A stretch of 45,459 nucleotides of DNA from the IMG/VR virus record IMGVR_UViG_2651869692_000003. The stretch is one strand, 5' to 3'. Positions 9,001-12,000 of the stretch are shown here, piece by piece. The number at the start of each line of letters is the position of its first letter. Position 1 is the first letter of the stretch. The position numbers are program-made. The stretch is from a virus (lineage: Duplodnaviria > Heunggongvirae > Uroviricota > Caudoviricetes).

Positions 9001-12000
9001 TGGAATCACCAATAAATCTGGCTATTACTGCTTTGTTCTGTGCAGCACGAAGCATCTGGTGATTGATGGCTATTTCATTGCGCATAACGCCTCCAGTTGT
9101 TTCTTTGCTGCTCTGATTAATTGTTTAACTCGGCGTGATAATTCAGATTCGTGCGGGTAGAAAGCGGACATGACGCCGCTACCCGCGAGCTGAAAGTGCA
9201 TCATGGGTAACTCCTTATATTTGATTGCATAACGAAAACGCCTCGAGTGAAGCGTTATTGGTATGCGGTAAAGCCGCACTCAGGCGGCCTTGATAGTCAT
9301 ATCATCTGAATCAAATATTCCTGATGTATCGATATCGGTAATTCTTATTCCTTCACTACCATCCATTGGAGGCCATCCTTCCTGACCATTTCCATCATCC
9401 CAGTCGAACTCACAAACAACACCATATGCATTTAAGTCTTTCGAAATTGCTATAAGCAGAGCATGTTGCGCCAGCATGATTAATACAGCATTTAATACAG
9501 AGCCGTGTTTATTGAGTCGGTATTCAGAGTCTGACCAGAAATTATTAATCTGGTGAAGTTTTTCCTCTGTCATTACGTCATGGTCGATTTCAATTTCTAT
9601 TGATGCTTTCCAGTCGTAATCAATGATGTATTTTTTGATGTTTGACATCTATTCATATCCTCATAGATAAAAAATCGCCCTCACATTAGAGGGCAAAGAA
9701 GATTTCCAATAATCAGAACAAGTCGGCTCCTGTTTAGTTACGAGCGACATTGCTCCGTGTATTCACTCGTTGGAATGAATACACAGTGCTTATTCGTACT
9801 AATAAAACACCCAATTTTCTGTTTCTTGGTTGTGTCCAAAGTTATATTCAATATCTGGTGTTGATGTATCAATATTCTTCATCCCATCAACAAGAGTTGA
9901 TACAACAGCCAAATCTTGTTTGATTCTCATCAAATGGTATTTCTTTCGGCGCAATAAACTTTCAATGGCAAGTTTCTTCGTCGGGAATGCAAAAGATCTT
10001 TCTGCATTTTTTGCTACTTTCTTAATTGCATATCTATTTCTCCTTTGTTTCCATTCCTGTAACCACTGATTTGGTGCTGGTTTAAAATTAACAATCCAAT
10101 GCGCAGGAACCAACCATGCATAATGCTCTGTCTGATGAAAAGCTATATATTGAAGTGCGAATATTTTGATCCCATCTTCTTCAACTGTCGCCTGGAATCT
10201 CCAGAAAACAGGCATTCCATCATGTTCAGTTTCTGATTCAGGAAAAGGTACGCTCCATGATTTTGTCATATCTCACCTCAAATAAGTGGTTTGCTGCCTA
10301 ATTTCATTTTCTGGCGCCCAACACAAGTCATCTCGCCGTCAGTTGTTTTGGTTTCCGGTAGCCTGCCGCGTAAATGGCTACGTTTGGCAGGCAAATACTT
10401 CCACTGCATTCATCTGCCTTCTTGCAGCGAAGGCTTCCGAGTGATGCTGCTTTGTCTGCTCTGACGCAACCAGAGAGCTTTAGCGCAATTTTTCGCGCCA
10501 GTCGCTGTTCTTGCATTGCCTGCTCACGTTGAGCCTGTCTGCGTGCTCTGCGGCGATTTCTGGCGTTATCGTCAGCCAGATATGTAATGACTACTGCCAT
10601 GTTGACCTCCGATGATTGACTTTGGCGGTGACGCGCCGGGTGCTTATCTTCCGGTTGCCGTCGTGCAGCTGCACTTCTCGTCACCCCAAAGCCAACTACT
10701 CTTTGGTTCCCGCATTTCGGCGGGACAATCCCATCAATGTTAAAGAGCCTGCCAATCTGTTCCGTTTGGCTACCAGCGACCTGCTGATGACTTAAATTTA
10801 AGATTTCTTCAATTGTTGGTCAAGGGTGTTTTTGAAGAAAACTTAAATTTTTATTGCGAGGTTTAAGTTTTGCTTTGATTTTTAAAGGAAAGAAAAAAAG
10901 GGGCGAATGCCCCTTATGGAAGGTTTGCTATTTTTGCATCGACAACTACACCGATGATTTTGCAGTTCCCGTTGATCTCAATCATCGGATATTGTGGGTT
11001 AAGTGGTTTTAGAAACCTTCTACCAGCATCAATAACTAACTTCTTGAAAGTTGCCTCGTTTTCTCCTTCGAGCTTTGCCACTACCAGCTTCCCATTACGA
11101 GGTTCTACTTCAGGATCGACTAGTATTATCATCCCTTCCGGGATGCTAAGACCGGCTGGAGCCGTCATCGAATCACCCTTTACGTCCAGCCAAAACGAAT
11201 CTTCTGAACAATCTACGGTTGTATCGTACCAGTTATCTATTGCACGCTTATGATATGGCTCTACAGCTTCCATCCAACATCCTGCGCTTACCCAACTAAT
11301 TAGAGGATACGAACCTCTTGGATCATGCCTGCTGTGATAGGCAATGTTTGAAAGACTATCTTCTCCTTTCAACAAGTAATCAGGGGAGCACTGTAAAGCC
11401 TTGGCTAAAGCCAATAGGTTTTCGCCATTGGGCTCAGTTTCAGAACGCTCCCATTGGGAAATAGCAACATTAGACACGCCAACCATCTTGCCAAGGGCAG
11501 CCTGCCTAATCTTAAGTTCTTTTCTGCGAGCGCGAATACGCTCACCCATCAGTTGTGTATTCATAGTTAAGACATCTTAAATAAACTTGACTTAAGATTC
11601 CTTTGATAGATAATTTAAGTGTTCTTTAATTTCGGAGCGAGTCTATGTACAAGAAAGATGTTATCGACCACTTCGGAACCCAGCGTGCGGTAGCTAAAGC
11701 GTTAGGCATTAGCGATGCAGCAGTCTCTCAGTGGAAGGAAGTCATCCCAGAGAAAGACGCCTATCGACTGGAAGTCGTTACAGCTGGCGCCCTGAAGTAT
11801 CAAGAAAGTGCTTATCGCAAAGCGGCATAAGCAAATTGCTCTTTAACAGTCATGGTCCTTATTCCCGCCGAAATGCGGGAATACAACGCGCATCAGTTGG
11901 TGCGTATAACTTCTTATTTGTTAAGGAAATACTTACATATGCAACTTACAAGTACTCGCAAGAAAGCGAATGCAATCACAAGCAACATCCTGAATCGAAT

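Follow-up and report, generated by a model that had tools for sequence, protein, structure and literature searches.

What does the product of a gene do when it fills the place that ral and sieB occupy in phage lambda? The interval between the antiterminator gene N and ea10 holds ral and sieB in lambda, and likewise in HK140 and the P22-like phage UAB_Phi20. In the 45,459-nucleotide (nt) tailed-phage sequence IMGVR_UViG_2651869692_000003 (the whole stretch of DNA analysed, referred to below as the window), this interval is occupied by an open reading frame (ORF) of 156 amino acids (aa), here called ORF156. The evidence set out below establishes that ORF156 is a genuine, conserved protein-coding early phage gene, and that, as an accessory of the early-left (pL) operon of lambdoid phages, it makes up a cassette by itself. 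A distinct fold is predicted with confidence for its product, which looks more like a host-directed factor of the lytic cycle than like an equivalent of Ral or SieB and is unlike an exclusion protein made in lysogens. The function that is tentatively preferred is that of an early cytoplasmic accessory protein of the lytic cycle, which may bind a polyanionic target for host takeover or counter-defence.

The gene was placed at 9799-10269 in the initial annotation of the window, and the ORF listing reproduced exactly these coordinates on the minus strand, with an ATG start and 156 codons followed by a stop. The sequence immediately 5' of the ATG (10279-10270, minus strand) reads GAGGTGAGAT, and it includes a strong Shine-Dalgarno sequence, GAGGTGA, at 10273-10279 (minus strand), three bases 5' of the start codon. 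ORF156 has a guanine-plus-cytosine (GC) content of 36.5%, and of 29% at third codon positions, against 50% for the window, and it lies in the most AT-rich part of the region; because its DNA is AT-rich, a long open frame arising by chance would be least expected here. The gene is under purifying selection, with ratios of non-synonymous to synonymous substitution rates (dN/dS) of 0-0.16: no non-synonymous change separates it from the copy in phage 933W at a synonymous divergence (dS) of 0.069, and dN/dS is 0.033 against the HK97 copy and 0.156 against a copy from Rosenbergiella with 64% identity. Full-length homologues with 55-99% identity occur across the Enterobacterales, in Escherichia, Salmonella, Cronobacter, Pectobacterium, Brenneria and Rosenbergiella.

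The description of the gene as unassigned is right as far as function is concerned, but the gene is not unseen. Its protein is 100% identical to L0079 of 933W (ST933Wp19, NP_049479) and 99% identical to gp45 of HK97, and it matches phrog_1636, a family of unknown function, with an E value of 2.7e-112 and residues 1-156 aligned to profile positions 1-156. The gene is also found in H-19B, as an ORF downstream of N, and in BP-4795, Min27, phi24B, Stx2 phage 86 and dozens of Stx1a and Stx2a phages. HK97 gp45, 933W L0079 and the H-19B ORF share with ORF156 a protein identity of 99-100% and a location directly after N, and in 933W the spacing of 58 nt from the N stop is identical as well; no difference sets these genes or phrog_1636 apart from ORF156, and all carry merely the label hypothetical in hundreds of records. 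The exact protein is present on at least 1000 contigs, where the only names are "hypothetical" or "prophage protein". Annotated since the genome publications of 933W and HK97, ORF156 is already known and is ordinary as a sequence observation. A literature search by accessions, locus tags, PHROG identifier, peptide strings and "HK97 gp45" returned no paper on the family, and the sequence is absent from the supplements of a phage accessory-gene screen (PMC12373910). At least 80% of the region is present in 561 of 5426 complete E. coli genomes (~10%), which is about a quarter of the 2239 E. coli genomes that have at least one of the two linkers described below, and phage records show a similar ratio (78 of 332). 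By these frequencies, few uncharacterised early genes in the lambdoid and Shiga-toxin phages of E. coli are as widespread as ORF156, which most Stx phages carry.

Comparison with lambda, HK140 and mEp235 delimits an exchangeable cassette of 487 bp at 9790-10276 (minus strand), with ~36% GC against 50% in the window, the content of which is essentially ORF156 alone together with part of its ribosome-binding site. DNA identity to lambda (96.6%) spans 9202-9789 and ends there, and the identity to HK140 and to mEp235 ends at the same base, so that the divergence anticipated at about 9790 is a break at an identical position in all three phages. The assignment of the locus to the ral/sieB slot is likewise borne out, since ORF156 is a discrete cassette exactly where the intervals of lambda, HK140 and UAB_Phi20 carry ral plus sieB. 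On the left, the cassette is bordered by a linker of 123 bp at 9667-9789 (minus strand) that is common to lambda, HK140 and mEp235 at 96-97% identity. This linker, the fold z-score of which is -4.7, contains a GC-rich terminator-like hairpin followed by a U-run at 9675-9696, which corresponds to the hairpin that had been noted downstream of ea10, and a perfect 12-bp hairpin at 9757-9784, which could serve as a site for RNase III or for processing, or belong to the terminator cluster. The next gene downstream, beyond the terminator, is an ea10 homologue (DUF2528) at 9280-9648 (minus strand). By the criteria for a prophage moron, the cassette has an atypical GC content (36.5% against 50%) and a downstream terminator, and a promoter of its own was not detected in the consensus scan.

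On the right, the cassette is bordered by a linker of 54 bp at 10277-10330 (minus strand), of which a 98% identical stretch is found in mEp235, there in front of an unrelated cargo gene. Read in another frame, just past the N stop, this linker encodes ...TCVGRQKMKLGSKPLI followed by a stop, and the C-terminus of lambda N, for comparison, is TCSGRQKIKGKSIPLI followed by a stop; judged from this reading frame, 10277-10330 is clearly a scar left by the C-terminus of a lambda-type N. Phage 683R2, which is P22-like, has an N gene of 108 aa, putatively of the lambda type, that stops 8 nt before ORF156. Because of the scar in the linker and the position of the 683R2 N stop, the ancestral order is likely to have been a lambda-type N followed by ORF156, into which other N alleles would have recombined later, leaving the scar behind. 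The N allele upstream of ORF156 varies among phages, being of the HK620 type in the window, of the H-19B type in 933W and HK97, and the 108-aa N in 683R2; the downstream gene varies too, being ea10 in the window, cIII in HK97 and a gene annotated as "TolA" in 683R2. ORF156 is tied neither to a single N allele nor to ea10. The cargo of the slot in mEp235 (an HK022-type Nun plus a 207-aa ORF) and in HK630 (HkaP/HkaQ) is flanked by the same 54-bp and 123-bp linkers, but consists of proteins unrelated to ORF156, and a comparison of ORF156 with the mEp235 cargo by hhalign was negative.

The transcription signals around the cassette bear on when its product would be made. Directly upstream of ORF156 lies the N antiterminator gene of the HK620/P22 family, which encodes 90 aa (10328-10600, minus strand) and has 96% DNA identity to the N gene of HK140, annotated as HK620-like, with the identity beginning exactly at the N stop (10328). 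Its earlier designation as a P22-type N is accurate at the family level, at which a VITY N-terminus and an AAGxRKxKQxTAR C-terminus are common to both proteins, but not beyond it, as the protein is only 35% identical to P22-type gp24; the repressor of the window is 93% identical to P22-type C2. In a consensus scan, a pL-like promoter (TTGACC, 17-nt spacer, TAAATT) was located at 10795-10823 (minus strand), and it is the sole promoter-like site on the minus strand between the repressor gene and ORF156. A nutL boxA-like element, GGCTCTTTA, lies between the pL-like site and N at 10741-10749 (minus strand) and precedes a short CCCGC/GCGGG stem-loop, a candidate boxB. No intrinsic terminator was predicted between N and ORF156, nor any stable hairpin (z -0.38), and the first terminator-like hairpin after N stands downstream of ORF156; the Rfam scan gave no match in or around the gene. 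Because it has no closer promoter-like site and no predicted intrinsic terminator before it, ORF156 appears to be transcribed together with N, possibly even before antitermination is established. The early transcription from pL under N antitermination that the initial annotation had assumed is consistent with this arrangement, in which ORF156 is co-directional with and downstream of pL, the nutL-like boxA and N. ORF156 would accordingly remain silent in the repressed prophage and be produced only once infection or induction has occurred, at the same time as N or slightly later.

These signals bear directly on the possibility that ORF156, like sieB, shields the lysogen by superinfection exclusion or abortive infection. 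The sieB gene, with a promoter of its own, is expressed in lysogens, and its product is associated with the membrane. ORF156 occupies the same slot as sieB, which lies between N and ral/ea10 in lambda, HK140 and P22-like phages, and its low-GC, moron-like cassette and its high frequency in E. coli prophages would also suit an exclusion gene. However, sieB is on the opposite strand in lambda, HK140 and UAB_Phi20, whereas ORF156 is on the strand of N, no promoter-like site lies between pL and ORF156, and the protein lacks a transmembrane segment (maximum Kyte-Doolittle(19) value 0.56). No profile relation to SieB was found (hhalign probability 0.7% against lambda SieB, and no Pfam match), PADLOC gave no match, and members of the family occur in the genomes of an N4-like phage and of a large myophage. 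An exclusion function is therefore improbable, and a role in the lytic cycle rather than in the protection of the lysogen is favoured because relatives exist in the N4-like phage and in the 75-kb myophage.

The other resident of the slot, Ral, offers a different comparison, in which ORF156 would be a functional analogue that acts early to relieve type I restriction or to enhance modification. Lambda Ral (66 aa) and ORF156 are early pL genes of the same slot and the same strand, with the same early timing, and the neighbours in the operon are anti-nuclease functions (abc, gam, anti-RecBCD). ORF156 is, however, 2.4 times larger (156 aa against 66 aa) and has no relation to Ral by hhalign (probability 0.1% against lambda Ral) or Pfam. 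In addition, the two genes coexist in tandem in phage phi296, where one operon (L019 2603-3971) consists of N, two small ORFs, ral and then ORF156 directly; because ral and ORF156 stand side by side there, ORF156 is not a simple substitute for ral, and the tandem argues against redundancy. The start of the phi296 gene was shortened to 138 aa by the gene caller, although the frame runs to the full 156 aa, with 99.4% identity to the query. Restriction alleviation in the manner of Ral is thus very unlikely, and the Ral- or SieB-like role implied by the slot finds no sequence support, with hhalign probabilities below 1% for both proteins.

Beyond the lambdoid phages of E. coli, homologues of ORF156 are found in a range of settings, among them promoter-proximal places in early operons of unrelated temperate phages. 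In Brenneria and Pectobacterium prophages, the homologue is the last gene before xis-int, and the left-arm operon of a Marinobacterium prophage has a family member among the genes for RdgC, a methylase and the integrase. A 42-kb metagenome contig carries a member as the third gene of an operon that ends in DUF3799 and RecT, and a Vibrio phage carries one as the second gene, after a Cro-like helix-turn-helix (HTH) gene and before Rha. The family profile also matches proteins of LIET2, a 75-kb Pantoea myophage (116 bits), and of the N4-like phage phiAxp-3, where the gene lies between an AAA ATPase and a DUF2201/VWA gene. The Salmonella siphophage vB_SpuS_NX263 has a copy with 64% identity, which is the first gene of a small cassette (L012 4001-6401) with a ParB-HTH protein, a MarR-like regulator and a beta-clamp-like gene; the orientation of this cassette is opposite to that of the surrounding head and tail genes. 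These occurrences in LIET2, phiAxp-3 and NX263, together with the structural matches to other phage proteins given below, favour a role in the lytic cycle.

The protein itself belongs to no described domain family. The initial statement that it has no recognisable domain agrees with scans against Pfam, NCBIfam and PADLOC, none of which yielded a match, and a Pfam scan of 66 aligned family members also detected no domain. An exhaustive profile search widened the family to single-domain proteins with lengths of some 130-170 aa and gave 87 cluster representatives at E<=1e-3; neither domain fusions nor informative names were found among the homologues, and in PHROGs only families of unknown function were matched (1636, 13631, 25384, 28215, 18686 and 37429). 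Neither the protein alone nor the family profile found a relative by sequence in the PDB (best E values 0.13 and 0.64). With 22 close homologues as input, AlphaFold produced a poor model with a predicted local distance difference test score (pLDDT) of 62, and with an alignment of 66 diverse members it produced a confident model with a pLDDT of 96 and a predicted template modelling score (pTM) of 0.83. In this model, long predicted strands at residues 19-30, 33-46 and 50-55 and a short strand at 83-86 are combined with predicted helices at 56-61 and 66-74, which are short, and at 98-130, which spans 33 residues. Foldseek found no solved neighbour of the model in the PDB (best E 0.85). In the BFVD, 13 uncharacterised phage proteins match the model at E<=1e-3, and they come from N4-like phages (Achromobacter phiAxp-3 and Delftia RG-2014), Erwinia phiEa2809, and Rhizobium, Sinorhizobium, Cellulophaga and Tenacibaculum phages. 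The remote-homology and structure-prediction searches proposed at the outset were thus carried out, and they gave no confident homology to any characterised protein.

A likeness to Tudor, KOW, PWWP and PipX-like small beta-barrels was at the level of noise and gave no whole-protein match, and it implies neither homology nor shared function. The idea of a 2H-phosphoesterase, suggested by an HxT motif, was dropped, as the second motif is not conserved. The only family member in which an extension was seen is the metagenome protein P0051 (203 aa), which has an N-terminal cysteine-rich segment of ~55 residues (CTIKCTGILHCARANCQVDCQGSKAVC...) that could bind metal.

Conservation was assessed, in query numbering, over 66 family members that share only 18-27% identity with the query. 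A101 is conserved in 100% of them, G33 in 95%, T47 in 91% and E46 in 88%, and position 87 is lysine in 97% and basic in 100%. Basic residues are also kept at R24 (94%), K109 (83%), K83 and K84 (about 78%) and the residue-91/92 position (76%), and a family-wide basic stretch is made up of R24, K75/R76, K83/K84, K87, the residue-91/92 position and R108/K109. The protein is soluble and basic, with an isoelectric point of 9.07 and a grand average of hydropathy of -0.59; both termini are acidic, and residues 61-130 have a net charge of +12. The retention of the polar residues Glu46, Thr47 and Lys87 in such distant members, together with the small single-domain architecture without fusions that is also seen in known phage sponges, would fit a "sponge" for a small molecule or nucleotide signal, or a small enzyme, with Glu46-Thr47, Lys87 and the basic residue-91/92 position as the ligand site. 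Yet the protein resembles no sponge or enzyme of solved structure and has no recognisable catalytic motif, and this proposal, which is pure inference, has only a slim chance of being correct.

The preferred reading, a lytic-cycle accessory protein directed at the host, is the best supported because a consistent location in the early operon beside host-directed functions (Ral, Gam/Abc, Kil and CIII) is combined with the conserved basic stretch. According to this proposal, ORF156 would act in the cytoplasm during lytic development and not in the lysogen, and its basic stretch may bind a polyanionic target, which could be nucleic acid or one of the host's nucleic-acid-handling factors. Host takeover or counter-defence would result, as with the neighbours in the operon. 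The position of the gene is of interest in this respect, as the other occupants of the slot modulate host defences. A rather unlikely alternative is that ORF156 is a phage-internal regulator that would bind DNA or RNA and, instead of acting on the host, adjust the phage's own early transcription, antitermination, replication or recombination.

Several points weigh against a host-directed lytic role. The idea of nucleic-acid or polyanion binding derives from charge and conservation only, and the members found in virulent phages are distant ones, whose function may no longer be that of ORF156. In a study of enterohaemorrhagic E. coli phages that carry ORF156 (PMC12502783), the reported anti-defence matches were only methyltransferases, Ral and Gam, and ORF156 was unflagged; a scan of PADLOC-DB 2.0 gave no defence-model match apart from a spurious Cas1_II fragment at E 0.018, and both PADLOC and the anti-defence libraries of that study cover only known families. 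The promoter and terminator scans, moreover, report consensus matches that are no more frequent than in shuffled sequence, and a weak internal promoter or Rho-dependent termination after N may exist.

A bolder form of the host-directed reading, possible but doubtful, is that the gp45/L0079 family is the founding member of an unrecognised class of early phage effectors with its own fold, cytoplasmic proteins that would neutralise a host immune or nucleic-acid-handling factor or sequester a signalling nucleotide. If so, the class would have distant relatives in phages of several bacterial phyla. What the present analysis contributes is a confident structure model without a solved relative, a defined family with members as far afield as N4-like phages and large myophages, exact junctions of the cassette, and arguments that narrow the plausible roles towards a cytoplasmic function in the lytic cycle.

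Elsewhere in the window, the region at 2587-3266 marks the chromosomal border of the prophage: identity to yehQ-yehP ends at ~3198, and the prophage integrase begins at 3266. The prophage seems to have inserted inside yehP (VWA CoxE-like), of which only the C-terminal ~200 codons would be left on this side, and all eight rows sampled from 5342 matching records end at this junction or match the integrase side only. The IS009 small RNA family of Rfam is matched over its full length at 43855-44054 on the plus strand, close to the right end of the prophage (205.6 bits, against a gathering score of 117). Six further ORFs of 114-291 aa are without a Pfam family, at 17355-18113, 42984-43757 and 44584-45459 on the plus strand and at 18438-18836, 4642-4986 and 6419-7000 on the minus strand. 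The 132-aa ORF at 18438-18836 lies just upstream of the lysis genes on the opposite strand, and an ORF of the same location and orientation, also annotated as hypothetical, is present in a prophage of E2348/69 (L002 22842-23240).

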